Source: Candidatus Aminicenantes bacterium | GTDB taxonomy: Bacteria; Acidobacteriota; Aminicenantia; Aminicenantales; UBA8522 | Length of the DNA: 64,000 nucleotides | Assembly (NCBI GenBank): GCA_037444845.1 | Contig: JBBILQ010000008.1 | Span: forward strand, 385 to 64,384 | Direction: 5' to 3' | Shown here: one piece after another, positions 4,616 to 56,467 of the stretch | Numbering within the stretch: position 1 is the stretch's first letter | How the letters are laid out: each line of letters starts with the position of its first letter | Notes under the pieces: model-generated | What the model saw: only the letters and a program-made list of their open reading frames with translations | Databases searched by the model: none | Told to the model about the DNA's origin: nothing | Program-made: the position numbers and the translations under genes

Positions 4616-5704
4616 ATGGCCAAGTTTGAAGGAGTGAAGTGGGCGCCCCGGCAGATGAGATACACCCTGACAGAAAAGCAGTTCGAGATCGCCGAGCCCG
4701 ACGCCAGGGTTTTTGCCGTCTCCCGGTCCATCCACTATGGACTGTTCCTGGCCTTCGAGGGCATCCGCTTTTACTGCAAGAAAAACGGCCGGGGAGACTG
4801 TGAGGTCATATTTCTCAACTGGCACAAGAACCTCGAACGGTTCCAGAAGGGGATCGCTTTTAATTTGAGCAGCGACCAGCAAGCGCTTGTCCCGGAGATC
4901 GAGGAGCTGGAGCATCTGTTCATCCATCTTTACTTCAAAGAACCCGCCATGAGGGCGTTCTTGGAGGAGATGGCTGGACTCGGAGCCCAGGGCTACCTCC
5001 GGCCGTTCACGGTGGATGAAGAGCAGAGTATCGGCGTGACCTTTCCCGCTCAGCCTTCCATCCGGGCCATGGCCTGCCGCTACGACCGATACCTGGGAGA
5101 GCCCTTTTGCGGGGCTGTGGTTCCCCATCTGGTCCGCGCCGTTGGCGTCAACAAGACCGGCTGCCTCAAGCTGGGCATCAACTATCTCATGAGCGTTAAG
5201 GCCATAGACGAGGCGAAAAAGCTCTGCCCGGAAGCAGCCTCAGCCCTCTTCCTGGATGACAACCCGCAGGCCCCGATTGCCGAACGGCAGGTCAGCGAGT
5301 GGGATTCCTCCTGTTGCTTGTTTGGCCTCCGCGAGGGGAAGGTGATCAAGATTCCGGAGAGCAGCCTCATCCTCCCTTCGGTGACAATCCAGGGAATCGT
5401 GGCGATCCTGAGGGAAATGGGCGTGCCTGTGGAAGAAAGACCCTTGACCTACGGAGAGCTTGTTGATCGAGTGAAGGCAGGAGAGCTTGTCGTGGCTTCG
5501 AGCGTCGGCACAGCCGGCATCCTGAACAGGTGCGCAAAGCTTGTGTTAGTCGATGACAAAGGCGGTATTCTCACTACCCATACGCCTGACGCGAGCCATC
5601 CGCTTTTCGAGAAACTGGGGAAGGCAAGAGAGACCTACCGGGACATCTATCAGGAGAAGGTGAAAGTCCCGGCCGGTCTCAGACTCTTTAAATACGTCCT
5701 CTGA
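4616..5704 (+). CDS. Divergent class IV PLP aminotransferase (IlvE/BCAT-like)
   Basis: HYGLFLAFEGIRFY, YLRPF, LKLGINY (PLP lysine), VSE, ILPSVT and SVGTAG align with BCAT motifs. Confidence 0.8.
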   Translation: MAKFEGVKWAPRQMRYTLTEKQFEIAEPDARVFAVSRSIHYGLFLAFEGIRFYCKKNGRGDCEVIFLNWHKNLERFQKGIAFNLSSDQQALVPEIEELEHLFIHLYFKEPAMRAFLEEMAGLGAQGYLRPFTVDEEQSIGVTFPAQPSIRAMACRYDRYLGEPFCGAVVPHLVRAVGVNKTGCLKLGINYLMSVKAIDEAKKLCPEAASALFLDDNPQAPIAERQVSEWDSSCCLFGLREGKVIKIPESSLILPSVTIQGIVAILREMGVPVEERPLTYGELVDRVKAGELVVASSVGTAGILNRCAKLVLVDDKGGILTTHTPDASHPLFEKLGKARETYRDIYQEKVKVPAGLRLFKYVL

Positions 5705-5798
5705 AGGACGGACTTTTGGCGCCCTCCCCTCGAGTTTTTTTCCTTATCTTTTTTCATAAAAATCCGCTTTTCGCCGAGATCCAAACGACGCGATATCG

Positions 5799-5827
5799 TT
5801 GACACGGCTTTCTTTCGCTTATATAAT
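5799..5827 (+). promoter_or_regulatory. Consensus sigma70 promoter for the csgG-like gene
   Basis: TTGACA (5799-5804), 17-nt spacer, TATAAT (5822-5827). Confidence 0.75.
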
Positions 5828-5850
5828 CCTGCCGTGATGAGGAGGGAAAC

Positions 5851-6603
5851 ATGAAGAAGGCGCTTATTCTATTTTCTCTTGCAACGATCTTCGGATTCTT
5901 GATGTCCTGCGCTCCCACGGCCACGGTGACCTCAGGCGGAGGCCCGTCGATCGCCGAAGCCAGAGCTGAACGGTATGATGGCCCCAAAGCTCGACTGGCC
6001 GTCGGCGAGTTCAGGGACAAAACAGCCAGGGGAGAAGGCCCGACTGGCTGGTTCGGGATGTTCGGCATCCATTTCAAAGAAATCGGCGATGGCATGAGAG
6101 ACATGCTGACCACGGCGCTTTTCAACTCCAACCGCTTCATTGTTCTGGAGAGAGAACAGTTAGACACCGTCCTCCAGGAACAGGACCTCGCGGCCTCAGG
6201 CAGGGTCAAGAAAGGGACCGAAGCTCCTACGGGCGAGATTTATGGCGCCGACTTGATCATCACGGCCGCCGTGACCGAGTTTGAAGGCGGAGCCAAGGGC
6301 GTCGGCGGCGAAACGCGGGTCCTGGGCGTGACTGTTGGAGGCGGGCTGACGAAAGCTCATATTGCCATAGACCTCAGGATCATCGATGCAACAACTTCCC
6401 AGATTGTCGCGGCGACGACAGTGGGAGGGAGCGCGACAAGCTTCGGAGCCGAGGGAGAGACAAATATCGGCGGAAGCCTCCCTGTAGCGCTGGGCGGATT
6501 TTCCAAAACCCCGACAGAAAAAGCTATCCGGGTCTGCATTCAAAAAGCCGTTGAGTACATCGCCAGCCGGACTCCGGCCGAGTACTACCGCCATAGGAAA
6601 TAA
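5851..6603 (+). CDS. CsgG/HfaB family lipoprotein
   Basis: Lipobox FLMSC; RLAVGEF, LTTALFNSNRFIVLEREQLD, GADLIITAAVTEFE and IDLRIIDATT motifs. Confidence 0.85.
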   Translation: MKKALILFSLATIFGFLMSCAPTATVTSGGGPSIAEARAERYDGPKARLAVGEFRDKTARGEGPTGWFGMFGIHFKEIGDGMRDMLTTALFNSNRFIVLEREQLDTVLQEQDLAASGRVKKGTEAPTGEIYGADLIITAAVTEFEGGAKGVGGETRVLGVTVGGGLTKAHIAIDLRIIDATTSQIVAATTVGGSATSFGAEGETNIGGSLPVALGGFSKTPTEKAIRVCIQKAVEYIASRTPAEYYRHRK

Positions 6604-6612
6604 TCGGCTCCC

Positions 6613-6627
6613 CGAGCTTCAAGCTCG
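6613..6627 (+). terminator. Short hairpin after csgG-like gene
   Basis: CGAGCT-TCA-AGCTCG followed by a T-rich tract; weak stem. Confidence 0.35.
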
Positions 6628-6647
6628 ATCTTTCTCTACCTACTTAC

Positions 6648-6747
6648 TATTATCCACGCAATTATTTATAAGGCGCCCCTCTTCCTCCCCCCTCGAGAGG
6701 AGAGGGAAAGGCTGGGGTGATATAACTTATTTATCGCGTTAATAATA
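6648..6747. mobile_element. 100-bp MITE-like element
   Basis: Ends TATTATCCACGCAAT and ATCGCGTTAATAATA are inverted repeats (12/15) with TA at both outer ends; GC-rich core related to the one at 13607-13695. Confidence 0.55.
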
Positions 6748-6805
6748 TTTCTGGACAAAGTCTCAGCGCTGGGCATTGATTGAGTAATTGATTCAGGGGC
6801 TTTGT

Positions 6806-8098
6806 TCAGAGCAGCAGCTTCTTTCGCCGGAACTTGAGCTTCATGGTCAGAACTCTGTCGGTGGAAAAGATGCGGGCAGCGATAAGGATCAGGGCGATAA
6901 AAAAGACTAACATATAAAGAAGGCCGCCAAAGACGGCGGTATAATTTTCCAGGAGCAGGTTCTGCGTCGTCAGGAAGGGATGAGAAAAGGGGATGGCATA
7001 AACGAAGAGTTTAACTGGAAGGGAAAGGTTTTTGATATCGGAGAAGAAGGAGAGGAAGTAGGGGATCATGACGAGAAAAATCAGCGGCATGATCAGGCTT
7101 TGGGCGCTCCGGTAATCTTCGGCCAGAACGCCGAGAATTGTGGCCATGGCCAGGGCGCAGAGGATGGCCAGGAAGAGAGAAATTCCGAGGATGAGGTAGC
7201 TGTTGGCGGTCGGGGCAAGGCCAAGCTCCTGGATGACCCTGCCCAAGCCCGCTGAGTCTACTGCCTGTCGCACATCGCCCATAAAACCTCCCATGTAATA
7301 CCTGAACCCGAACATATAGATGACGGCGGAAACCAGCCCGACGACAGCCGAGGCTAACATCTTGGTCGTGACGATGGACGTTCGGCTGATCGGGACGGTG
7401 AGCAACGTCTCTAAGGTTTTATTCTGCTTCTCCATGGCGATGGCCGAGATGACCATCTGCGAAGAATAGATAATGATCATCATCAGGATGATGGGGAGAA
7501 AAACGGATTGGGCGGAGACGAACCCTGCGATCGACGAGGCCGACCCTTCGGCCATCCTGGCTTTGACGATGACGAAATCCTTGCTCCGGACCGGTTTCTT
7601 GAGTTTTTCCGGGCTGAAGTCAGGAATTTTCTTTTTTAAGAAGTCATCGGAGATGTAGTTGTTGAGCGCGGATATGACGCTCCCCAAGATGACCGAACTC
7701 CTGCTTCCTACGAGGGAAAAGCTCCTCAAGAAAGAGTAGGTTTCCATCTCCTTCAACTCTAAGGCCGACAGGGATTCGCCGAAACCGGGGGGAATGACCA
7801 AAAGGAGGTTGATATCGCTTGCTTTTGTCCATTCCACGGCTTCCTCTTTGGATTTGCCCTGGAGCTTTTCTACGTGGAAACGGGCCATGTTGAGGCTATC
7901 GGTTAGCTGTTGGGAAAGTGTTGACGCGTCCAGGTCGAGGACCGCAATTTTCTGGGTCCGCATGGCCCTCTTCATCTCGCTTTTGGCCATCTGGCCGATG
8001 AAATAGAAAAGGAAAACCGTAAAAAGCAGAGAGATGAAGAGTTGCAGGGTGATAAGCTCTCTGATTTCCTTTGCCAGGAGGTTGAGGAATTTTTTCAT
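6806..8098 (-). CDS. ABC-2 type exporter permease (NatB-like)
   Basis: N-terminal TM, large loop, IAMEKQNKTLETLLTVPISR motif, several C-terminal TMs. Confidence 0.9.
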   Translation of the reverse strand: MKKFLNLLAKEIRELITLQLFISLLFTVFLFYFIGQMAKSEMKRAMRTQKIAVLDLDASTLSQQLTDSLNMARFHVEKLQGKSKEEAVEWTKASDINLLLVIPPGFGESLSALELKEMETYSFLRSFSLVGSRSSVILGSVISALNNYISDDFLKKKIPDFSPEKLKKPVRSKDFVIVKARMAEGSASSIAGFVSAQSVFLPIILMMIIIYSSQMVISAIAMEKQNKTLETLLTVPISRTSIVTTKMLASAVVGLVSAVIYMFGFRYYMGGFMGDVRQAVDSAGLGRVIQELGLAPTANSYLILGISLFLAILCALAMATILGVLAEDYRSAQSLIMPLIFLVMIPYFLSFFSDIKNLSLPVKLFVYAIPFSHPFLTTQNLLLENYTAVFGGLLYMLVFFIALILIAARIFSTDRVLTMKLKFRRKKLLL

Positions 8099-8817
8099 CT
8101 GAGGGCACTCCTGAAGACTTCTTCTAAGTTTCCGGCCTGGTATTTTTCTTTAAGCTCTTTCGAAGTGCCGGAATCCAGGATGACTCCCTTATCGATGAGA
8201 GCGACCCTGTCGGACAGGAACTCGATCTCGAGCATGTTGTGCGAGGACAGGAGCACGGAGATGCCTTCGGCGGCGAATTTCTTGATGATCTCTCTCACCT
8301 CCAGCGCGTTGATAACGTCGAGGCCTGAGGTGGGTTCGTCCAGGATGGCCAGGTCCGGCCTGGTCATGAGGGCCCGGCCGAGGAGGAGTTTCCTGACCAT
8401 CCCCTTTGAATACGTGCCGGCCTTCTCGTTGATCCGATTTCCCAGTCTGGCGATCGATTTGGCTCGATCCACAAACTCGCGGGTTTTCTCGTCGGAATCG
8501 GCGTAGAACCTGGCCATGAACTTCAAATAATCGATGCCCTTGAGGTTTCTGTACGCTCCGGCTTCTTCAGGAAGATAGCTGATTTTTTCACGGAATTTTT
8601 CCGGTTCCTTTTTCAGGTCGAAACCAAGAAACGTGACTTTGCCACCGGTGGCGGAGAGGAGAGTGGCCACGATGCGGAGAGCTGTCGTCTTTCCGGCCCC
8701 GTTCGGGCCGATGAGGGCGAAGATTTCTCCCGGTTTGACCTGGAAGTTGATGCCTTTGAGGGCTTCCAGGCTGCCGTAATTTTTTCTTAGGCCTTCGACT
8801 TCGAGGACTGAATCCAT
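8095..8817 (-). CDS. ABC exporter ATP-binding protein (NatA-like)
   Basis: GPNGAGKT Walker A, YSKGM signature, ILDEPTSGLD Walker B; 4-nt overlap with permease. Confidence 0.92.
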   Translation of the reverse strand: MDSVLEVEGLRKNYGSLEALKGINFQVKPGEIFALIGPNGAGKTTALRIVATLLSATGGKVTFLGFDLKKEPEKFREKISYLPEEAGAYRNLKGIDYLKFMARFYADSDEKTREFVDRAKSIARLGNRINEKAGTYSKGMVRKLLLGRALMTRPDLAILDEPTSGLDVINALEVREIIKKFAAEGISVLLSSHNMLEIEFLSDRVALIDKGVILDSGTSKELKEKYQAGNLEEVFRSALR

Positions 8818-8880
8818 ACAAACCTCCCGTTCTTCATACGCAGAGATTCTAATAAAGTTTGGGCCGATTTGCAAAACAGG

Positions 8881-10827
8881 TCAAGATTTGACGATGACAG
8901 CCAGCGATTCCATGTGCGGGGTGTGGGGGAAAAAGTCGAAGATGGAGAGCTTCTGGAGCTTGTAACCGTGCTGGGCAAAAAGGCTCAGGTCGCGCGCCAG
9001 GGCAGCCGGGTTGCAGGAGACATAAATGATGGCCGGAATGTTCAAGGCTGTGATGTGTTTAAGTCCTTTGTTGCTGATCCCAGCCCGGGGAGGGTCGAGC
9101 ACAACGAGGTCAAAGCCGCGGAAGTCGCTCTTCTTGAGAACCCGCTCGACGCGGCCTTCGATAAAGCGACAGTTAGAGATGCCGTTCGTCCGGCAGTTTT
9201 CCCTGGCCGTCGCGATGTTCATCGGTTCAGAATCGACGCCGACGACTTCGTCTGCGGTCCGGGATAGGAAGATCTCGATCGACCCCGGCCCGCAGTAAAG
9301 GCCCAGGACTCTCCGGCTTGCTCTGGCGTTTGCTTCGGCCGCAATTTTGCTGTAAAGAATCTCCGCCGCCTTCGGGTTAGGCTGGAAGAAGGATTCAGGA
9401 GAGATTCGAAACCGAAACCTTCCCATCGTATCCTCGATGAATTTCTGGCCGGAGATGTGTTTTTTCGCGGTGTAGTCGACGACATCGGAAACCCGGTCGG
9501 TTTCCACCCACCAGAAGCTCTTCATCCGGGACATCTCAAGCTCCAGCCTTTCGGCGAGCCGCCAGACTTCTGGCTGCCGGCCGCTCTTCGTTCCCAGGAT
9601 AGCCAGGATATCGCCGCTTGCTTTTCCTTCTCTCAAGACGAGATTCCGGAAATAGCCTTCCCGCCGGGTCGGGTCGTAGGCGGGGAGTCCCGTCTCTTTG
9701 GCAAAGCCGGCAACAAGGGGAAAAATCTCTTCGGCAGCGGGGCTGAAGATCGGGCATTTTTTGAGCTCAACAGTGCTTCTTTCGCCTTTTGCCAGAGGAG
9801 AAGCGCGGCGGCGAAGGCCAAGAAAGACGCGGCGGCCTTCTCCTCCGAAGGCAAACTCCATCTTGTTCCTGTAGAAATAAATATCCGGCGAAGGGATGAT
9901 GGGCTCTTTTTCCAGCCCGGTTGCTTCGATTTTCCCGATTGTCCTCAGGGTTCGAAGGAAATAATTCTCTTTGAGCTCGAGCTGCTTGGAATAAGCGAGG
10001 TTCTGGAAGGCGCAGCCGCCGCACTCGCCGAAATGGGGACATTCCGGCTTGACCCGAAAAGGTGAACGAGAGTTGAAGTTGATCATCCGGCCGAAAAAAT
10101 GTTTTTTCCTTTTCCGCGCCACCCTGATTGTGACCTGATCGCCGACGATGGTCCCGGGGACAAAAGTGACTGCCTTGTCGATCATCGCCACACCCCAGTC
10201 GTTCGGGAAAGCGATATCGGTGATAGTGACGGAATGCTCCGCGCTCAAGAACTCGGCCAGCAGCCTCTTGACTCTCTTAACGGGAAGGCCGACGACATTG
10301 TCGTAGTCGCCTTCGAGTTTTTCGACAAAGGCATCCCCGACCTTTTGAATGGCGTAACCTCCGGCTTTGTCAGCGAACTCGCCGGTCGCGAGATAGCCTT
10401 CGATCTCTTCGTCGCTTAACGGCTTGAAGCGGACGTGGCTGATCTCGCAATCGGCGAGGAGCCTGTCCTCGTCTTTCTTGTAAAAGGCGACGGCGGTGAT
10501 AACGCGATGCCTTTGGCCGGAGAGTTTCTTGAGCATCTGCCTGGCGTCAAGCCTGTCTTTGGGCTTTCCGAGGATTTCCTTTCCCAGACAGACGAGAGTA
10601 TCAGCCCCTAAGACCAGCGCAGACGGAAATTTCTCGGCCACATCCCGCGCTTTGGCTTCGGCAGCATGGAGGGCAAAACGCACTGGGTCTTGTTCTCGGA
10701 AGGTCTCTTCGTCCACTTCGCTCGGGACAACCTGGAAGCGGCTGACGATTCTCTTGAGGAGCTCTTGTCGTCGCGGCGACCGAGAGGCAAGGATGATCTC
10801 TAGACCGGTCTCAGGATTTGTCCGCAT
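8881..10827 (-). CDS. rlmD: Maf nucleotide pyrophosphatase fused to 23S rRNA m5U methyltransferase RlmD
   Basis: N-terminal ~195 aa: ILASRSPRR, GADTLV, GKP, DKAGGYAIQ, NVVGLP. Then TRAM domain, CPHFGECGGC Fe-S motif, YRNKMEF, SFFQPN, DPPRAG, YVSCNP, FFPHTPHME. One continuous frame. Confidence 0.9.
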   Translation of the reverse strand: MRTNPETGLEIILASRSPRRQELLKRIVSRFQVVPSEVDEETFREQDPVRFALHAAEAKARDVAEKFPSALVLGADTLVCLGKEILGKPKDRLDARQMLKKLSGQRHRVITAVAFYKKDEDRLLADCEISHVRFKPLSDEEIEGYLATGEFADKAGGYAIQKVGDAFVEKLEGDYDNVVGLPVKRVKRLLAEFLSAEHSVTITDIAFPNDWGVAMIDKAVTFVPGTIVGDQVTIRVARKRKKHFFGRMINFNSRSPFRVKPECPHFGECGGCAFQNLAYSKQLELKENYFLRTLRTIGKIEATGLEKEPIIPSPDIYFYRNKMEFAFGGEGRRVFLGLRRRASPLAKGERSTVELKKCPIFSPAAEEIFPLVAGFAKETGLPAYDPTRREGYFRNLVLREGKASGDILAILGTKSGRQPEVWRLAERLELEMSRMKSFWWVETDRVSDVVDYTAKKHISGQKFIEDTMGRFRFRISPESFFQPNPKAAEILYSKIAAEANARASRRVLGLYCGPGSIEIFLSRTADEVVGVDSEPMNIATARENCRTNGISNCRFIEGRVERVLKKSDFRGFDLVVLDPPRAGISNKGLKHITALNIPAIIYVSCNPAALARDLSLFAQHGYKLQKLSIFDFFPHTPHMESLAVIVKS

Positions 10828-10974: not shown

Positions 10975-12657
10975 ATGTTCAAAGGGCATCCGAAGGGTCT
11001 CTTTGTCGCCTTTTTTTCCAACATGGGCGAGCGGTTCGGGTTTTACACGATGATCAGCATCTTTGTCCTCTTCCTTCAAGCCAAGTACGGCTTTAACGCC
11101 GCCCAATCGAGCTTAGTTTATGGAGTTTTTCTTTTCTGTGTTTATTTTTTCCCGCTGCTCGGGGGAGTGGTGGCTGACAGGCTGTTAGGCTACGGGAGGA
11201 CGATCAGCCTTGGTCTTGTCGTCATGTTCTTAGGCTACATGATGCTCGCGATCCCGAGCGTTAGGGAGACGAATTTCGCTCTCGTTATCGCCGCCCTGGC
11301 CACGATAGCCCTGGGCACAGGGTTTTTCAAGGGCAACCTCCAGGCACTCGTGGGGAACCTGTATGATGACCCCCATTACGGCGCCTTGCGCGACAGGGCG
11401 TTCAATATTTTTTACATGGGGATCAACATCGGCGCGATGTTCGCGCCGACAGCCTCGGAAAAGGTCAGCAACTGGATTCTGGCCGCGTCGAACTATGTTT
11501 ACGACGCAAGGATTCCAGCGCTGGCCAACGATTTCCTGAAGGGAAAACTGGCCGAGGCGGGCGAGTATCTCTCCATCGCCCGGCTCCAGGACCCGAGCGT
11601 CACCCTGGAAACGCTCGCCGGGTTTTCGGAGAGATACATCAACGCCCTGAGCAAATCCTACCACTACGGCTTCGGAGTGGCCTGCGTCAGCCTGATCATC
11701 TCCATGCTCATCTTCTGGGGTTTCCGGAAGTTTTACCGGCAGGCCGATTTCACCGAAAAACAGAAAGCCAAGTCTGAAGCGCTCAAATCTCAAGTAGTCG
11801 AACTGACTCCCCAGCAAACAAGGGAACGCCTGGTCGCCCTTGTTCTCGTGTTTTTGGTCGTCATCTTCTTCTGGATGTCTTTCCACCAGAGCGCGGTCAC
11901 GATGACCTATTTTGCGAGGGATTACACTGTGCCGAGCGTGGGCAAGATCGCCAACTTGCTTTTTGACCTTTTCGGCCTTCTGGCCGTCTTCCTGGCCGTC
12001 GTGGGCCTTGTTTTCCTGCTCAGGAAAAGTTCTGGCACCGGAACGCGGTTGCTCGGAGGGCTGGCTCTTGTCGGGTTTGGACTCCTCGCCCTCCAGAGAT
12101 ACAAAAGCTACGGGGAGGTCAACCCGTTCACTCCGCAAAAATTCCAGCATTTCAACCCGTTTTTTATCGTCGCTTTAACCCCGCTCGTTGTCGGCCTGTT
12201 CGGCTATCTGAACAGGAAGGGGAAAGAGCCCTCGGCGCCGAGGAAAATCGGTGTCGGCATGCTCATCACCGCGGTCGGCTTCCTCCTGCTCGTTTTTGGG
12301 TCGTTCGGGTTGCCCAGCCCGAAAGAACTTGGCGGACAGGTGGCGCCGGCCGGAGACCTTGTTTCCGTCTACTGGCTGATCGCGACGTATTTTTTGCTGA
12401 CGATTGCTGAGCTCTTCCTCAGCCCGATGGGGATTTCTTTCGTTTCGCGAGTGGCGCCTCCAAAGTACAAAGGAATGATGCAGGGCGGATGGTTTGCCGC
12501 GACAGCCATCGGGAACTATCTTGTCGCCGTCATCGGCTATTTCTGGTTGAGGGTGCCCTTATGGTCGTTGTGGTTGATCCTGGTTGTTTGCTGTCTTCTT
12601 TCTGCCGGGTTCATCTTTGCGGTGATGAAAAGGCTTGAGCGGGTGGCTCGAGCTTAG
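10975..12657 (+). CDS. Proton-dependent oligopeptide transporter (POT/PTR, MFS)
   Basis: ERFGFY, GGVVADRLLG, FYMGINIG and TIAELFLSPMG motifs. Confidence 0.92.
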   Translation: MFKGHPKGLFVAFFSNMGERFGFYTMISIFVLFLQAKYGFNAAQSSLVYGVFLFCVYFFPLLGGVVADRLLGYGRTISLGLVVMFLGYMMLAIPSVRETNFALVIAALATIALGTGFFKGNLQALVGNLYDDPHYGALRDRAFNIFYMGINIGAMFAPTASEKVSNWILAASNYVYDARIPALANDFLKGKLAEAGEYLSIARLQDPSVTLETLAGFSERYINALSKSYHYGFGVACVSLIISMLIFWGFRKFYRQADFTEKQKAKSEALKSQVVELTPQQTRERLVALVLVFLVVIFFWMSFHQSAVTMTYFARDYTVPSVGKIANLLFDLFGLLAVFLAVVGLVFLLRKSSGTGTRLLGGLALVGFGLLALQRYKSYGEVNPFTPQKFQHFNPFFIVALTPLVVGLFGYLNRKGKEPSAPRKIGVGMLITAVGFLLLVFGSFGLPSPKELGGQVAPAGDLVSVYWLIATYFLLTIAELFLSPMGISFVSRVAPPKYKGMMQGGWFAATAIGNYLVAVIGYFWLRVPLWSLWLILVVCCLLSAGFIFAVMKRLERVARA

Positions 12658-13475
12658 GCGAGTTTCTTGAGGACATAGAAACAGCGATCTCTGTAAAGAA
12701 AATCGACTGCCGCATAACCGCGCCCGAAGTATCTCCGCATGGCTCTGCGAAGACGATCCTGCCAGGCTGCGATGAAAGCACGCGCCGTACGGCTTGTGTT
12801 TATTTCCTGCGGGACCTCGGCCAGGATGATTTTATCGTCAAGGTTGAGTCTTACTTTGCCCGGCCAGGAGTCTGGGGCAGTGGATTTTCTCTCAAGAGCC
12901 CTTGGTAGCCTATTTTCGTCATACCGATCAAATCTATCCTGCCGGTGCCTTTCAACCCGGGCTGTCCTTATCTGCCACTCGACCAGAAACCGGTCGGTCG
13001 GGATGTGCAGGCCGTGGGTCAGGGAGGATGTCGTCCCGTAAAAATTCGGCCAGTAGGTCCTGGTCATCGCGCCTAAGGTGTGCAGGTTGAGGTTGGCATT
13101 CCTGGCGACAAGAGGGTCAAAGGTCCAGGTAATCAGGTCGTATCCCAGCCTCAGGGCCCATCTCCGCTGCGCCCATTTCAGCTTTTTGCCGATCCCAAGG
13201 CCTTGGTAATCCGGGAGGACAGCCAGAAGGTGAGAATGCTGGCGCGGCTTGTTGTCGAAGATTGCGGGGAAGGAATAGACAAAACCGGCGAGTTCCTCTT
13301 CGACGTAAGCCCCCAGGAGGATTGCTCCCATCCGGGAGGTGATGGAGAACTGATGGGTGGGAGTAAGGTCGATGTCATCGTGTTTCCAGACGGTTTTCTG
13401 GATACGGACGAGCTTGGCGAAATCGGCGTGGCTCGTCAGCTTTCGGATTCTGACCTGGAGCCTTCTCTTTTTCAT
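12654..13475 (-). CDS. GNAT acyltransferase, COG3375-like
   Basis: HSHLLAVLPDYQGLGIGKKLKWAQR, WTFDPL, NANLN, DRFLVEW. Start MKKRR at 13475 preferred. Confidence 0.8.
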   Translation of the reverse strand: MKKRRLQVRIRKLTSHADFAKLVRIQKTVWKHDDIDLTPTHQFSITSRMGAILLGAYVEEELAGFVYSFPAIFDNKPRQHSHLLAVLPDYQGLGIGKKLKWAQRRWALRLGYDLITWTFDPLVARNANLNLHTLGAMTRTYWPNFYGTTSSLTHGLHIPTDRFLVEWQIRTARVERHRQDRFDRYDENRLPRALERKSTAPDSWPGKVRLNLDDKIILAEVPQEINTSRTARAFIAAWQDRLRRAMRRYFGRGYAAVDFLYRDRCFYVLKKLA

Positions 13476-13546
13476 CGGTTTCGCTTCTATTCCTGCAGAA
13501 TATATCTTTAGCGGGAAATCCATGTCAAGTTAATAGGGGTTAATAG

Positions 13547-13750
13547 GGGGACAGCATACGCAATTCACTTAACCTGATCTATTCACAAAATGATACGATA
13601 AAACGCCCCCTCCCCTGGCGGGAGGGGATAGAGGGGAGGGGGAATCTTTGAATGATCCCCCTCACCCCGACCCTCTCCCACATGGGGAGAGGGGATTTTT
13701 TCCTTTCATTTCGTGAATAGTCCAGGTTAATTGAGGGCAACGTATGCCCG
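13547..13750. repeat. REP-like GGGGACA hairpin interrupted by a MITE
   Basis: GCATACG (13554-13560) and CGTATGC (13741-13747) form one hairpin once the 154-bp insert is removed; left arm GGGGACA..AATTC resembles 1304-1356. Confidence 0.5.
13573..13726. mobile_element. 154-bp MITE with 21-bp terminal inverted repeats
   Basis: CCTGATCTATTCACAAAATGA versus reverse complement CCTGGACTATTCACGAAATGA (18/21); flanked by TTAA at 13569-13572 and 13727-13730; GC-rich internal palindromes. Confidence 0.8.
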
Positions 13751-14155
13751 GTTTACTAATTGCGGCAGCATAGAAAGTGGGGCATATTCAATTGGTGAGA
13801 GAGACGAAAAAAATCTCGTGATGAGGTCGGGACTCATGGGCCGGTCCATGAAGCCCCGCGACTCGAGGACGAATTCCTTTCCTTCTCGGCTGAAATCGGC
13901 TTGATCCCGGATGGCGATAAATTGATACGTCAGGCCATGCCTGTCTTTTTTCCCGCCGTAAGAGAACTTGTCGAGAGGCAGAGAAAGGGAGCGGGATAAA
14001 AAACGAATCAGGTCGAGAGTGTTCCAGTGCGATTTTTTGAGAAGGTAAACACGGTGCTGTCCTCGGGGCCGGAGGCGAAGGGCTGCCCTCTCTTCGACAA
14101 CAAAACCCTCCGAAATTGACTTGATCGCGGGACGCCCGGGTTTATCTCCAGACAT
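13727..14155 (-). pseudogene. truD: 3'-truncated tRNA pseudouridine(13) synthase TruD
   Basis: IKSISEGFVVEE, YLLKKSHWNTLD and YGGKKDRHGLTYQ (catalytic Asp motif). Similarity stops near 13820, where a GNxF motif should follow; 142 codons versus >300 aa expected. Confidence 0.8.
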
Positions 14156-15014
14156 TGTATTTCTTAACCAGGTGGTGGGGATAGTAGGACATTTTGGCCC
14201 GGCGCAGGCCGGCAACGCCAATATCCTGCTCCCGGTTGATGAACCTGAAGCCCGCCCATTCATGCCTGACGAATTCGCGGTTGATGAGCTGACTGAGGCC
14301 GTCATAACCAGGGCTGGCGATCTCGATGTGGATGACGGCCGTGTCAGCATTCAACCTCCCCCCGATCGAAAAAGCTTCAATCTGTCCTTCCACCTCGATC
14401 GCCCCGCCAACAAGCTCCAGATCCTTGAAGTGAGCGAGAGCTTCGAGGATGGCCGTTTTCTGCTCTTCGCCCACGGGCTGCCGCTGTTCTGCTTTTTCTC
14501 CCACCCACTTTTCGAAGAGATGCCGGCAGCCCTGAAGATGCTCAGGAGAGAGCGTCACGTATCTGTGGCTGTAGCTTTTTTCAAATTTCCTGATCCTGTT
14601 TCGCTTTCCGTCGTATTTCTTCCCCCTGAGTGAGATCAAGTCTGAGGTTAGATAAACATAGTCAAAGTTGTTTGGGTCCTGATCGTGCGCGAACCCGCTG
14701 CAGTAGCGCTCGACGAAGGCTTCTGGAACCCGGGAAAGCCGTGGCGAAAAAGAGAGGCAGGTTTCGACCGTTTCCCGGATGTCGGTATGGCCGAGCGGCT
14801 GCAAAAAATAAGCGGGCTCGGAGGGAGGTTCACAGAGGAAGCAGAGGTTGCCGTTTATCGTCGTCATCTTGGGGTGCTCGAAATTCCGCCAGATAAAAAT
14901 ATTGGCAAAGCTGATCTCGCACGCTTCTGAAGGAAAGCGACGGATGAAGCCCAAAATCGTCTCCTTGTCCTCGAGCCCGACCAGCTTGAATTCCGGAAAA
15001 CGTGGCAGGGTCAT
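14142..15014 (-). CDS. DUF2156 / LPG-synthase C-terminal-like tRNA-dependent transferase domain protein
   Basis: SFANIFIW, DYVYLTSDLISLRGKKYDGKRNRI, HIEIA, FINREQDIGVAGLRRAKMSYYP. Confidence 0.88.
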   Translation of the reverse strand: MTLPRFPEFKLVGLEDKETILGFIRRFPSEACEISFANIFIWRNFEHPKMTTINGNLCFLCEPPSEPAYFLQPLGHTDIRETVETCLSFSPRLSRVPEAFVERYCSGFAHDQDPNNFDYVYLTSDLISLRGKKYDGKRNRIRKFEKSYSHRYVTLSPEHLQGCRHLFEKWVGEKAEQRQPVGEEQKTAILEALAHFKDLELVGGAIEVEGQIEAFSIGGRLNADTAVIHIEIASPGYDGLSQLINREFVRHEWAGFRFINREQDIGVAGLRRAKMSYYPHHLVKKYNVWR

Positions 15015-15418
15015 CCTCGTTTTTTGATCATGATCGTGCAGCGGTCGCGGCTGCACTCCGCGCACCAGTCGACTTTCTTGATCATCGAGGCGGGGATAGA
15101 ACCAGATTCTTCAAACCCGAGTTTTCTGAAAAATTCCGGGATGATTGTGGCCAGGTAGATATCGCCGGATGTTTCCTGGAGGAGAGTCCGGACAAGTTGC
15201 CTTCCCAAGCCCCTTTTCTGGAATGTTTCATCGACGCCGAGCGAACAAAGCTCCCTGCAGTCCGGATGCTTCTTGAGTCCGCAAATGCCGATGATTTTGT
15301 CGCCTTCCGAAGCCACCCAGAAATCATCCGCTGCCATGTTCTCGTAATCGAGGTTGTGCTTGGCCGCGAGAGCGCTGATTTGAGGCAAGTCGTCTTTTAC
15401 AGCTTTTCGGATGGGCAT
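15011..15418 (-). CDS. Short GNAT N-acetyltransferase (ArgA-like)
   Basis: ELCSLGVDETFQKRGLG, PEFFRKLGF, C-terminal WCAECSRDRC; ATGA overlap with DUF2156 gene. Confidence 0.85.
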   Translation of the reverse strand: MPIRKAVKDDLPQISALAAKHNLDYENMAADDFWVASEGDKIIGICGLKKHPDCRELCSLGVDETFQKRGLGRQLVRTLLQETSGDIYLATIIPEFFRKLGFEESGSIPASMIKKVDWCAECSRDRCTIMIKKRG

Positions 15419-15588
15419 GCGAGTATTTTACCATAAAGCCCCGGATCTCCTTGCCAAGAAAAAGAACAGGCCCGGGCCCCAAGTTGAGGAAAGATATGCG
15501 TTCAGTTTAAATAAAAGACCTTTTTATTTGACGAATCAGACATGTCCATGTTAATAGTTATTTGCATTTAATAAAGGAATAAACGATT

Positions 15589-16626
15589 ATGGGCAGCAGC
15601 GAATTTGCAGGAACTTACCTGGACAGCAAGATCCGGTCGTCATCAAGAGGACACCGACGTTCGATATCAGCGAGACGGAGCCTTTCTCTGGGCCTGCGAG
15701 GGCTCAAAAATTCCATCCGAAGAAGGCCATTGACCATATCCTTTGAGATTACCCACGCCTGCAACGCAAAATGTCGTCATTGTCATCTCGGAGGGGGAAT
15801 AAAGGAAGACCGGGCCTCTCCTCAGGCCTATGCGGAGATCTGCCGCAGGGTTAAGCCCGTCATCGCCCAGTTTTCTGGCGGCGAGCCGCTTCTCCGCCAG
15901 GACCTCGAGGAGATCGTCCGGGCGGTTCGCGTCCGTGACCGCGCGCCTTATGTCGTGGTTACGACCAACGGAGCCCTGCTCACAAGAAAACGCTACGACG
16001 GCCTCCGCGAGGCCGGGGTCGACGAGTTCTCGATTTCGCTGGATTATCCGGACGAGCGGCATGATGCGTTCCGGCGGATCCCCGGTCTGTTCGGCCGCAT
16101 CAGGGCTCTGGTCGAAGGCTTGATCCCGTCAGAGAGGAGCCACATCACGCTTTGCTGTGTCATCCAGCGTGACAATTTTAGAGACCTTCCGCGGATGTCA
16201 GAGCTTGCATGGAAATGGAGCGTTGCCATCAACTTCAGCTGCTACACACCGCTCCGGACTCATGACCGGAGTTACATGATTCCTCGGGAAGAGCTGGGCG
16301 AATTCCAGGAGATCACCAAACGGCTCGTTGCTTTCAAGAAGCAACACGACACCGTCTTCACATCGGAATATTTTTTTAAGAACATGACGAACTATTTCGA
16401 GCGGGGCTATTTTCCCCGCTGCCGTACTGGAGAGAAGTTTTGCAACGTCAATCCCAACGGGACGTTTTCTCCCTGCGGCCTGATCATCACAGATTTCAAG
16501 ACACTGGAAGAACTGAAAACCGGCTTTTCAAGGACGAACACCTGCGCCTACTGCCTGACGAGCACCCGGGCCAATTCCGAACAGCCGCTCTGGCGGTTAG
16601 CCTGGAATGTGCTGGAAAACTTTTAA
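15589..16626 (+). CDS. Radical SAM enzyme with twitch/SPASM-like domain
   Basis: CNAKCRHC, SGGEPLLR, TTNG, SLD; C-x12-G-x4-C plus CAYC. True start may be downstream of 15589. Confidence 0.9.
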   Translation: MGSSEFAGTYLDSKIRSSSRGHRRSISARRSLSLGLRGLKNSIRRRPLTISFEITHACNAKCRHCHLGGGIKEDRASPQAYAEICRRVKPVIAQFSGGEPLLRQDLEEIVRAVRVRDRAPYVVVTTNGALLTRKRYDGLREAGVDEFSISLDYPDERHDAFRRIPGLFGRIRALVEGLIPSERSHITLCCVIQRDNFRDLPRMSELAWKWSVAINFSCYTPLRTHDRSYMIPREELGEFQEITKRLVAFKKQHDTVFTSEYFFKNMTNYFERGYFPRCRTGEKFCNVNPNGTFSPCGLIITDFKTLEELKTGFSRTNTCAYCLTSTRANSEQPLWRLAWNVLENF

Positions 16627-16647
16627 GGATGGCCGTCACGCCGGACC

Positions 16648-17343
16648 ATGCCCATAGGAAACAAAAAACAAGCGCCGTCTCCAGGATCATCGACGTTTGG
16701 CCCCGTTACAGGGCTGAATAAACACGCGCGGAACATCCTTTTTGCGCTGCAGTTCCTGTTCATCGGAACTCTCGCCGTTATCTGGATCAGTTCGGGCCTC
16801 ATTCAAAAAAGCACGAATCTTCTGGTGCTCTTTTTCTACAGCTTTCCCTCCGAATTTGTTATCGGCATGCTTCCCCACGAGCCCGCCCTCATCTATTTCG
16901 GCGCGTTTTTCGATCCGTTGACGGTGACCTGGGTGGCTCTCTTGAGCACAGTCTTAGCGGAAATAGGTAATTATTTTGTCATTCGCCGCATCTTTGATTT
17001 TCGGGCCTTGCAGAACTTCCGGACAAGCGCCACGACCAGCAGGATTATGAGCCTTTTTAAAAGGGCCCCCTTTCTGGCTGTCTGGATCGCCGGATTCACT
17101 CCCATCCCCTTCTTTCCCTTTCGGTTTCTCGTCGTGCTGGCCGAATATCCTGTTTGGAAATACGCGTTGGCTGTGGCGACCTCTCGCGGGCCTCGATTCT
17201 ACCTCCTGGCGCTCGCGGGAAAGCTGATGAAAATTCCCGATATCGTCTTGATCTTATTCTCTGTGATTATTGTTCTGACGGCCAATTTCCCTTTTATCAA
17301 AAGTTTCGCGAGAAAAAGACTTTCCAGGAAAACGACCCCTTGA
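16648..17343 (+). CDS. VTT/DedA family membrane protein
   Basis: LPHEP re-entrant motif, GFTPIPFF and SRGPRF motifs; hydrophobic. Confidence 0.75.
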   Translation: MPIGNKKQAPSPGSSTFGPVTGLNKHARNILFALQFLFIGTLAVIWISSGLIQKSTNLLVLFFYSFPSEFVIGMLPHEPALIYFGAFFDPLTVTWVALLSTVLAEIGNYFVIRRIFDFRALQNFRTSATTSRIMSLFKRAPFLAVWIAGFTPIPFFPFRFLVVLAEYPVWKYALAVATSRGPRFYLLALAGKLMKIPDIVLILFSVIIVLTANFPFIKSFARKRLSRKTTP

Positions 17344-17362
17344 TCAGGAACGGTCAAAAGGA

Positions 17363-18271
17363 ATGAAACTCGGGTCATGGTTCACGCGGCGATACGGGCA
17401 GGTGCGGTTCCGGCTTGTGGACATCAACTGTTTGGCGTATTTCGGAGGGATTGCCTTTCTCCTCATTTTCTTTCACCGGACCGTTCCGGCCTGGCCAAAG
17501 CATGTGTTGACCCATACCTTGGTCATTGTTGCCATCCTGGAAATTGTCCGGCTCGGCGAATCTCTTCCCGGAAGGAAGGGGATCTGGTTTCTAAGGACTT
17601 TCTACCCTGTGGCCGCAATTCTCATCGGGTGGAGCGAGGTCGACGCTCTGGCAAGGATGTTCTTCGGCAGTTACTGGGCGACGGACCTCCTCATCCGCGC
17701 GGATGTGACGGTTTTTGGGGTGCACCCGACGGCCTGGGTCCAGAAGTTTTACCGTCCCTGGCTCGACGAGTTGATGGCCATTTTTTATTCCGGCTACTAC
17801 CTGTTTCTGCCTCTGGCCACGCTCCCGCTGTTCATCAAGAAAAAATATGAAGAGACGTTGGCGGTCTTTTCCGTCGCCACATTTGTCCTGTTCATCAACT
17901 ATTTTCTCTTTTTCCTAATGCCAGTCCTCTCACCGGTAATGACCGAGTCGCTGGACGCGCTGCACACCGCGAGGTATTCGGGGTTTATCGTGGCAGAAAT
18001 CACCCGCTTTATCCAGACCCACGCTTCTGTGCGCGGAGGAACATTTCCCTCCTCCCATGTTTCCCAAGCCCTTATTTGGGCGTTGATGGCTTTTCGCTAC
18101 AACAGAAAGATGGGCAGGATTCTTCTGTTAGCGGTGCCGGGGATGGCTGTTTCGACAGTTTATCTGGGCTATCATCATGCGTTGGACCCCATCGGAGGAC
18201 TCCTCCTGGGGGTATTGCTCTATCCGGTCGGAATAAAGATCATCGAGGTCCGGCGTGAAGACCCGCGGTAA
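17363..18271 (+). CDS. PAP2 superfamily membrane phosphoesterase (Aur1/IPC-synthase-like)
   Basis: FYSGYY, FLMPVLSP, GTFPSSHV and LGYHHALD (HxxxD); no KxxxxxxRP C1 motif. Confidence 0.85.
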   Translation: MKLGSWFTRRYGQVRFRLVDINCLAYFGGIAFLLIFFHRTVPAWPKHVLTHTLVIVAILEIVRLGESLPGRKGIWFLRTFYPVAAILIGWSEVDALARMFFGSYWATDLLIRADVTVFGVHPTAWVQKFYRPWLDELMAIFYSGYYLFLPLATLPLFIKKKYEETLAVFSVATFVLFINYFLFFLMPVLSPVMTESLDALHTARYSGFIVAEITRFIQTHASVRGGTFPSSHVSQALIWALMAFRYNRKMGRILLLAVPGMAVSTVYLGYHHALDPIGGLLLGVLLYPVGIKIIEVRREDPR

Positions 18272-55939: not shown

Positions 55940-56467
55940 GACGACAGCCCGGCCAAACCTCAAGGAGTATTCCGCAGCTGAAACGACGGCCACCAGGATG
56001 ACCAGCCAGAGCCCAACCCGAGAGAGGATGAAAAGCGGGCCCAGTATTTTCTCCCCTAAAAGCAACAAATAAATCGTGAATGTCTCCAGGATCATCTTGA
56101 TCTTGCCGAGGACAGAGGCCGGGATGTTGATCCCTTTAGATGCAGCCATGGCCCGGAATCCGCTCACGGCCATTTCCCGGCCGATGATAATCACGGCCAT
56201 CCAGGCAGGCACCGCTCCCATCTCAACGAGGCAGATAAGGGCCGAGGCAATCAACAATTTGTCTGCGGTCGGGTCCAGGAGCTGACCCAGAACAGTCGTC
56301 AGCCTTTTTCTTCTGGCCCAGAATCCGTCCAGCATATCCGTGAGGGTGGCGATGAAGAAGATGGCAAAGGAAACAAGCTCTTTTCCCCGGAAGTTCGAAA
56401 GAAGCACGACGACCAGGATGGGGATGGCAGCGATGCGGAGGGATGTCAGAACAAGAGGCGCATTCAT
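55925..56467 (-). CDS. pgsA: CDP-diacylglycerol--glycerol-3-phosphate phosphatidyltransferase
   Basis: TDMLDGFWAR, GQLLDPTADK, GREMAVSGFR. Confidence 0.92.
   Translation of the reverse strand: MNAPLVLTSLRIAAIPILVVVLLSNFRGKELVSFAIFFIATLTDMLDGFWARRKRLTTVLGQLLDPTADKLLIASALICLVEMGAVPAWMAVIIIGREMAVSGFRAMAASKGINIPASVLGKIKMILETFTIYLLLLGEKILGPLFILSRVGLWLVILVAVVSAAEYSLRFGRAVVSSRT

Follow-up and report, generated by a model that had tools for sequence, protein, structure and literature searches.

A three-gene locus for a radical SAM enzyme and two membrane proteins

We analysed a 64,000-nucleotide (nt) stretch of DNA, here called the window, from a Candidatus Aminicenantes bacterium (contig JBBILQ010000008.1) and found three consecutive genes on the + strand that encode a radical S-adenosylmethionine (rSAM) enzyme, a membrane protein of the VTT/DedA superfamily and an Aur1-like membrane protein of the PAP2_3 family (Table 1). 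The rSAM and VTT genes are separated by 21 nt and the VTT and PAP2_3 genes by 19 nt, exactly the gaps given in an earlier reading of this DNA made without database searches (the sequence-only reading). That reading had also pointed to an AT-rich region ahead of the genes, and we measured a GC content of 37.6% in the leader and 26% in its last 99 nt, compared with 54% in the operon. An AAGGA sequence lies 12 nt ahead of the rSAM ATG. In a consensus scan, the + strand of the leader gave no match to sigma-70, and we only infer that a promoter lies there. Terminator-like sites were not in excess within the operon (7 seen, 4.7 +/- 2.0 expected), and a convergent C69 peptidase gene is located 6 nt from the operon end. 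We looked for transcript evidence and found no RNA runs containing the locus. Because the same trio recurs in relatives with different flanking genes, its arrangement is not due to chance. As judged from the sequence, the three genes form a co-transcribed operon.

Table 1. Coordinates of the operon, its leader and the rSAM genes of one related clade
Feature	Position	Strand	Description
Leader, AT-rich, probable promoter region, shared with divergent GNAT gene	window 15419-15588	+	170 nt; low GC
rSAM enzyme, open reading frame (ORF)	window 15589-16626	+	345 amino acids; Pfam Radical_SAM PF04055
VTT/DedA-superfamily membrane protein, ORF	window 16648-17343	+	231 amino acids; VTT_dom PF09335
PAP2_3 (Aur1-like) candidate membrane phosphotransferase, ORF	window 17363-18271	+	302 amino acids; PF14378
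rSAM in clade with adjacent MTTB-family gene	~6000-6970 in L001, L020 and L023; ~2590-3500 in L014; ~2410-3310 in L018

The first protein matched the Pfam Radical_SAM family with an E value of 1e-18 (68.5 bits; cut-off 29.5). In an alignment of 117 homologues that were 53-88% identical, both the CX3CX2C motif (C58/C62/C65) and the GGE motif (G97-G98-E99) were invariant, as were four C-terminal cysteines, C278, C296, C319 and C322. These four fall into the pattern C278-x12-G-x4-C296 and C319-x2-C322. A full SPASM domain has the form CX9-15GX4C...CX2CX5CX3C...C, and its truncated form, the twitch, holds one cluster. The CX5CX3C part is missing here; because the second half of the SPASM motif is absent, we classify the enzyme on its motifs as twitch-like, with one auxiliary-cluster motif and four candidate ligands, in agreement with the twitch-type enzyme that the sequence-only reading had described. 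A further invariant cysteine, C190, is not part of a cluster motif; by analogy with rSAM epimerases, one may speculate that it donates a hydrogen atom. Many other invariant residues were polar or charged (E53, T55, Q94, D105, N127, D145, D152, D159, R162, Q193, N196, Y219, R223, R327 and E331). The AlphaFold2 (AF2) model of the enzyme (pLDDT 89.5, pTM 0.87) has an alternating beta/alpha core, and the protein is predicted to be soluble. Residues 1-~25 are not conserved and were modelled at low confidence, with residues 1-22 below pLDDT 50 and disordered.

We could not place the rSAM enzyme in any characterised family by sequence, as the sequence-only reading had likewise concluded. All 58 of its NCBIfam matches were far under the curated cut-offs, the best being AhbD (79 bits; cut-off 500); others were archaeal MoaA (72; 325), NirJ2 (68; 500), PqqE (66; 381), the mycofactocin maturase (64; 265) and HpnH (49.9; 225). 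A PDB sequence search with the rSAM profile returned weak matches confined to the core: MoaA (E 5e-11), AbmM, BlsE, CteB, Tes (E 7e-7), PqqE, BtrN and viperins. The closest fold was that of BlsE (TMq 0.66, the highest value), and SkfB, SuiB, PqqE, MoaA, viperin and Tes came next; the Tes structure 7tol aligned at profile positions 27-129 only, with a TMq of 0.46-0.48. The enzyme thus shares its fold class and cluster motifs with BlsE, MoaA, AhbD/NirJ and PqqE, but the tetrapyrrole, molybdopterin, PQQ, nucleoside-antibiotic and precursor-peptide genes that would be expected with such enzymes are absent nearby. We rejected an assignment as a heme, heme d1, PQQ, mycofactocin or other peptide maturase (AhbC/D, NirJ, PqqE, MftC), an outcome that the sequence-only reading had named as fatal to its proposal, since the scores were below the cut-offs, with AhbD the best of them, and no such neighbours occurred in 80 loci of relatives. 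MoaA was rejected on its score, and HpnH and Tes/Mss on the HpnH score, the core-only Tes match and a length of ~320 amino acids as against an architecture of ~500 with lipid pockets.

The second protein matched PF09335 with 44.4 bits (cut-off 33.9) and no NCBIfam model. The motifs LPHEP, E105-x2-NY and TPxPFFPFR, which are re-entrant-loop-like, were conserved among 60 orthologues. Its sequence thus bears out its earlier assignment to the DedA/VTT-domain superfamily, with lipid transport as its predicted role. Single-sequence PDB searches with this protein, the PAP2_3 protein or the CDP-alcohol transferase found in related loci (see below) gave no matches.

The third protein matched PF14378 with 58.9 bits (cut-off 27). 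It contains a C2 motif (P229-S230-x-H232) and a C3 motif (H271-x3-D275), and P229, S230, H232, H271, D275 and G279 were invariant in 111 homologues. The C1 motif KX6RP is absent from the protein, and the 111 homologues have no conserved Lys/Arg-Pro block in its place. The sequence-only reading had noted this combination of C2 and C3 without C1, and had likened the protein to head-group phosphotransferases such as inositol-phosphoceramide synthase. Profile and fold comparisons pointed the same way. The family profile aligned with yeast AUR1 across C2-C3 (GAFPSxH...STxYLxxHxxxD; E 5e-4) and with Bacillus subtilis PgpB around C3 only. The AF2 model (pLDDT 96, pTM 0.92) found two cryo-EM structures of Aur1, 9ivc_A and 9vj4_A, as its top two Foldseek matches, with a full-length TMq of 0.53-0.54, ahead of PgpB and LpxE. 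Applying the positive-inside rule to the AF2 helices, we predict eight transmembrane helices with the N terminus inside and C2 and C3 on the outer face. These comparisons support the protein as an Aur1-like candidate phosphotransferase. We rejected a PAP2 lipid phosphate phosphatase of the PgpB, BcrC/UppP or LpxE type, as the protein has no KX6RP and its scores were far below the cut-offs for undecaprenyl-diphosphate phosphatase (27.6 bits; cut-off 229) and PgpB (22; 261).

A conserved core with changing partners

We searched 61 genomes, consisting of the host, an Aminicenantes-like metagenome-assembled genome (MAG) from a subsurface metagenome, and 60 relatives. The rSAM gene was present in 19 of the 61, host counted, and wherever it was a full-length orthologue (17 genomes) a VTT orthologue lay directly downstream on the same strand (17/17). 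A scan of species-representative genomes yielded at least 544 rSAM relatives, and we found at least 1,600 clusters of related proteins, every one from an uncultured lineage. We analysed the best 80 loci, which come from MAGs of Aminicenantes, KSB1, Calditrichota, Vicinamibacteria, Stahlbacteria, Spirochaetota, Myxococcota and Thermoleophilia. Among the 57 loci with enough flanking DNA, VTT occurred within 5.5 kb of rSAM in 47 and a recognisable phosphotransferase was present in 39. The conserved core is therefore the rSAM-VTT pair and not the trio. The sequence-only reading had treated the trio as the unit; it does recur in relatives, but only in a single clade that occupies five rows of the rSAM tree.

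The sequence-only reading had suggested looking for CDP-alcohol transferase neighbours, and these proved to be the usual third partner. In the commonest layout, a CDP-alcohol phosphatidyltransferase of ~200 amino acids (PF01066) ends ~40-160 nt before the rSAM match and is followed by rSAM and VTT, often with overlapping stop and start codons. Such a gene was found just upstream of rSAM in 36 of 84 tree rows. Overlaps between rSAM and VTT, and between VTT and a PLD-type gene, were also seen in other variants of the module. In two KSB1-type loci, the rSAM-VTT pair is followed by a PLD-type protein with two HKD motifs (PLDc_2). Two delta/Myxococcota loci have no VTT, and rSAM is accompanied by two CDP-alcohol transferases, an NTP transferase, a Wzx-like flippase and an MMPL-PgpA fusion. 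VTT is followed by a lipid kinase of the DAGK_cat/YegS type in ~33 loci, as is usual in Aminicenantes, and an NAD-epimerase-type short-chain dehydrogenase/reductase (SDR) gene sometimes separates the two. Overall, the company of the rSAM-VTT pair is overwhelmingly one of phospholipid head-group enzymes: CDP-alcohol phosphatidyltransferases, PLD-type and PAP2-type proteins and kinases resembling diacylglycerol kinase.

PAP2_3 genes were seen only where the CDP-alcohol transferase is absent, and they belong to two subfamilies that are 33% identical. The rSAMs of the trio-bearing loci form one clade of the tree (support 100/99) inside a 22-row group without CDP-alcohol transferase. Among the 60 relatives, an orthologue of the window PAP2_3 gene was adjacent only in the host's own genus and two other genera. 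Across at least four flanking contexts the trio has been retained at 64-86% identity, and in relatives VTT and PAP2_3 overlap by 4 nt. Loci L015 and L021 carry a PAP2_3 gene of the other subfamily on the opposite strand, 4.4-4.7 kb downstream.

Several loci contained apparent fusions, of which only one looks real. In L016 (6982-8622), a single ORF of 546 amino acids has a VTT domain at residues 24-220 and a DAGK_cat lipid kinase at residues 241-541; it is possibly a natural fusion, which would tie a DedA-type protein to lipid phosphorylation. The fusions of CDP-alcohol phosphatidyltransferase to rSAM in L040, L069 and L086 arose as artefacts, either of long open frames or of assemblies with frameshifts, and a PAP2 match in L010 was a spurious fragment of 100 amino acids. 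In L026, the gene directly upstream of the rSAM orthologue encodes a VTT-PAP2-LssY_C fusion; this fusion has canonical C1, C2 and C3 motifs and is probably an ordinary phosphatase, and given its C1 motif we did not count it as an Aur1-type partner. In two Calditrichota-type loci, a membrane protein of the PsiE (phosphate-starvation-inducible E) family is encoded between rSAM and VTT (L036:7037-7396 and L037:5496-5981).

A proposed lipid-modifying module and competing explanations

We propose that a widespread module of three parts serves to make an unusual membrane (phospho)lipid and to put it in place, and that the operon is the version of it peculiar to one clade. We give this reading an even chance of being right; the product is probably a membrane lipid that has not been described so far. 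On the cytoplasmic side, the soluble rSAM enzyme would use a 5'-deoxyadenosyl radical and one auxiliary Fe-S cluster to modify the polar part of a lipid or a soluble head-group precursor. The VTT/DedA protein would then move the lipid across the cytoplasmic membrane. Finally, the Aur1-like PAP2_3 protein, with a predicted His-His-Asp site on the outer face, would take a phospho-head group off a donor phospholipid and attach it to a lipid alcohol, with release of diacylglycerol. In most other lineages the transferase step would instead fall to a cytoplasmic CDP-alcohol phosphatidyltransferase, and in a few to a PLD-type transferase.

The main argument for modification of the head group rather than of the tail is that the rSAM-VTT core stays fixed while non-homologous head-group transferases have been exchanged repeatedly around it. 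Changes to acyl tails alone would call for no dedicated transferase. The polar invariant residues of the rSAM enzyme and its sugar- and nucleoside-acting structural relatives point weakly in the same direction. What we observed directly for the proposed module is gene order, family membership, conservation, similarity of folds and exchange of partners; that the proteins share one pathway, act in this order, include a flipping step and work on a polar substrate rather than an acyl tail is what we infer from these. The sequence-only reading had proposed the same order of radical tailoring, flipping and head-group transfer. The order fits the predicted topology, with a soluble rSAM enzyme and outer-face PAP2_3 motifs, and the lipid head-group genes nearby suit it as well, but the trio to which it had been attached is not a conserved unit.

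For the PAP2_3 step, an inositol phospholipid is a plausible donor in the host, because a gene for myo-inositol-1-phosphate synthase (MIPS) adjoins a CDP-alcohol transferase gene: on host contig C14 (25249-26929), the transferase gene is followed directly by MIPS, and a carboxypeptidase-regulatory-like protein is encoded beside them. This arrangement is reminiscent of bacterial inositol-lipid clusters. MIPS was found in 47 of the 61 genomes, and the host encodes three CDP-alcohol transferases. One of the three lies in the window itself (55985-56467, - strand; PF01066, E 1.7e-36) and is unrelated to the module-type enzyme. The host also encodes an AONS-family pyridoxal phosphate enzyme (C39:15521-16585, - strand), and the model that fits it best is serine palmitoyltransferase (NF047600), with 503 bits against a cut-off of 640; BioF and Kbl score lower. 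The genes around it have no link to lipids. An inositol-phosphoceramide synthase moves inositol phosphate from phosphatidylinositol onto ceramide and so depends on a cell that contains both lipids. On sequence grounds, the PAP2_3 protein is possibly an inositol-phospho-lipid enzyme.

Several observations weigh against the proposed module. Adjacency of PAP2_3 to the pair arose only once or twice, and KSB1 is among the lineages in which orthologues of the window PAP2_3 (45-55% identity) occur with no rSAM-VTT pair; one such stand-alone orthologue sits with PEMT and DAGK genes. In one relative (G013), rSAM is followed by PAP2_3 with no VTT. The rSAM and VTT genes are themselves separable. Four relatives keep VTT between c4, a gene for a secreted CehA/McbA-type metallohydrolase of ~840 amino acids, and DAGK (with or without SDR) without a CDP-alcohol transferase, and they have no rSAM match at E <= 1e-20 or in the VTT region. 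Conversely, in one monophyletic Aminicenantes clade (L001, L014, L018, L020 and L023) the rSAM orthologue, 58% identical, has an MTTB-family (trimethylamine methyltransferase-like) gene at most ~30 nt downstream, in the place of VTT, and VTT stays elsewhere, at the c4-VTT-SDR-DAGK site. None of the nearest structural relatives of the rSAM enzyme acts on lipids; their substrates are nucleosides, sugars, peptides and cofactors. Contig C61 of the host (5194-10512) carries the genes that in most Aminicenantes surround the module, namely c2 (a protein without an assigned family), c4, DAGK and DUF429, and the module is absent between c4 and DAGK. Because these genes stay together without it, part of the lipid context is only a preferred insertion neighbourhood. 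All named homologues come from MAGs or metagenomes, and we found no cultured host. We rejected c2, c4, DAGK and DUF429 as obligatory parts of the system on the evidence of C61. We also set aside the MTTB neighbour as a functional clue, as the association has a single origin and in the host the MTTB gene and its downstream gene lie ~5 kb apart on one contig with no rSAM.

These observations also bear on the competing explanations. The three genes may be co-transcribed without serving one pathway: the rSAM enzyme would convert a small polar metabolite, the DedA-type protein would transport it, and the PAP2_3 protein would be an independent Aur1-type head-group transferase (an inositol-phospho-lipid synthase similar to BT_1522, for example) that landed downstream in this clade. 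We consider this unlikely. In its favour, PAP2_3 orthologues stand alone in other lineages, and genome G022, whose module is of the CDP-alcohol kind, also has one at a separate place; the trio arose a single time; one clade has rSAM beside the MTTB-family gene with no VTT or transferase; the closest rSAM folds act on soluble substrates; and many of the invariant rSAM residues are polar. Mere proximity would not readily account, however, for a trio kept over 64-86% identity in four flank contexts with overlapping stop and start codons, nor for PAP2_3-type genes of different subfamilies having been recruited twice, both times within the one rSAM clade from which the CDP-alcohol transferase has been lost. 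VTT genes that are fused or adjacent to genes for lipid kinases and lipid phosphotransferases also argue for a lipid pathway. An improbable explanation is that the rSAM enzyme modifies tails in the manner of Tes, Mss or Grs, by C-C coupling or cyclisation on acyl chains, with the transferase merely supplying a head group for substrate recognition. Acidobacteriota, the phylum of the host, have been discussed as a source of branched tetraethers. Tes is among the fold matches, and the lipid rSAM enzymes known so far take as substrates intact phospholipids that carry defined head groups, Tes having been crystallised with archaetidylglycerol (PMC13459092). Nevertheless, the Tes match is confined to the core (E 7e-7, positions 27-129, TMq 0.46-0.48), the enzyme has ~320 amino acids compared with 526 residues in the Tes chain, it lacks both an extra lipid-binding domain and a B12 domain, its HpnH score is 50 bits against a cut-off of 225, and its conserved residues are mostly polar.

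The least probable of the explanations we weighed is recycling of polyprenyl phosphate, here undecaprenyl phosphate (C55-P). The PAP2 protein would be an outer-face phosphatase of undecaprenyl diphosphate (C55-PP), the DedA protein a C55-P flippase similar to UptA, and the rSAM enzyme an accessory to envelope glycopolymer synthesis. DedA proteins such as UptA do recycle C55-P, pairings and fusions of DedA with PAP2 are common, the L026 fusion directly upstream of an rSAM orthologue has the canonical C1/C2/C3 motifs, and the delta/Myxococcota variant includes a Wzx-like flippase. The window PAP2, however, is without the C1 KX6RP of phosphatases, scores 27.6 bits against the 229-bit cut-off for undecaprenyl-diphosphate phosphatase and has a fold nearer to Aur1 than to PgpB or LpxE. 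Moreover, the commonest partners of the pair, CDP-alcohol phosphatidyltransferase and DAGK_cat, are enzymes of glycerolipids and not of polyprenyls.

The proposed module can be extended, more tentatively, to the whole family. The rSAM-VTT pair would then represent an unrecognised and widespread pathway of uncultured lineages such as Aminicenantes, KSB1 and Calditrichota, in which a phospholipid head group that is new, or newly modified, arises by radical chemistry, transferases of three unrelated superfamilies (CDP-alcohol, PLD and Aur1-like PAP2) serve interchangeably to install it, and the DedA protein exports the lipid to the outer leaflet. We hold this broader reading to be possible, with the balance somewhat against it.

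Relation to known systems and neighbouring genes

A 2026 review of lipid-modifying rSAM enzymes covers Tes, Mss, Gms, GrsA/B, Gmm, Cds, HpnH/J/P/R, Jaw5 and ladderane candidates, and it makes no mention of a DedA, flippase or phosphatidyltransferase partner (PMC13459092). Similar to Tes, Mss, Gms, GrsA/B, Cds, HpnH and HpnJ, the window enzyme is an rSAM protein with a predicted auxiliary cluster that is encoded among membrane-lipid genes, and radical chemistry on the head groups of lipids has precedents in Cds and HpnJ (PMC13459092). It differs from the known lipid enzymes in that it fits none of their family models, is smaller (~320 amino acids) and has no B12 domain, and pairing with a VTT/DedA gene has been described for none of them (PMC13459092). 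Literature searches on rSAM with CDP-alcohol transferase and DedA, and on Aminicenantes lipids, found nothing relevant, and none of the papers listed contained the term aminopentanetetrol; we found no published description of the rSAM-VTT module.

The bacterial Aur1 homologue BT_1522 has been shown experimentally to be a phosphoinositol-dihydroceramide synthase (PMC9246714). The window PAP2_3 protein shares with Aur1 and BT_1522 the Pfam family, the C2 (FPSxH) and C3 (STxYLxxHxxxD) motifs, the absence of C1 and a fold match over the full length. By contrast, its sequence similarity is weak (E 5e-4 to AUR1), it has no Kei1-like partner here, and the Aur1 and BT_1522 systems have no linked rSAM or DedA gene. 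The locus also resembles DedA-PAP2 pairs or fusions and UptA-type flippases, in which a VTT gene likewise stands beside PAP2 and flipping is coupled to outer-face phosphoryl chemistry. In the window, however, the PAP2 protein is Aur1-like and lacks C1, and the most constant partner of VTT is rSAM, not PAP2.

Membrane-lipid rSAM enzymes are few and mostly recent (Tes, Mss, Gms, Grs, Cds and HpnH/J), and almost all act on hydrocarbon tails. If our proposal is correct, an rSAM enzyme working with head-group transferases and a translocator of the DedA type would constitute a new branch of bacterial lipid biochemistry. It would also give a defined pathway context to DedA/VTT proteins, whose substrates are a long-standing question, and would extend Aur1-type transferases beyond Bacteroidota. 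The host phyla are abundant in anoxic sediments and bioreactors, their lipids are barely known, and lipids are used as environmental biomarkers. As all named homologues are from MAGs or metagenomes, heterologous reconstitution is the route to a test, and the three transferase classes that swap around a fixed rSAM-VTT core offer a clean handle for it.

Genes upstream of the operon in the window were also compared with related loci. A divergent pair (14142-15418, - strand) encodes a GNAT protein of 135 amino acids and a DUF2156/LPG_synthase_C protein of 307 amino acids (E 2e-46). Among the trio-bearing loci examined, this pair was present only in the closest relative (L006/L007), and we therefore place it outside the module. 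Further upstream, the window encodes a weak-GNAT protein of 289 amino acids (12654-13523, - strand), a 28%-identical paralogue of the c2 family, whose members usually lie upstream of the module in other Aminicenantes; a c2 representative from L041 matched neither Pfam nor NCBIfam models. At the position of truD, the window has an ORF of 207 amino acids (13727-14350, - strand), compared with 384 amino acids for the syntenic TruD of the closest relative (L006). Between the genes flanking truD the window is shorter by ~770 nt, so truD may be truncated.

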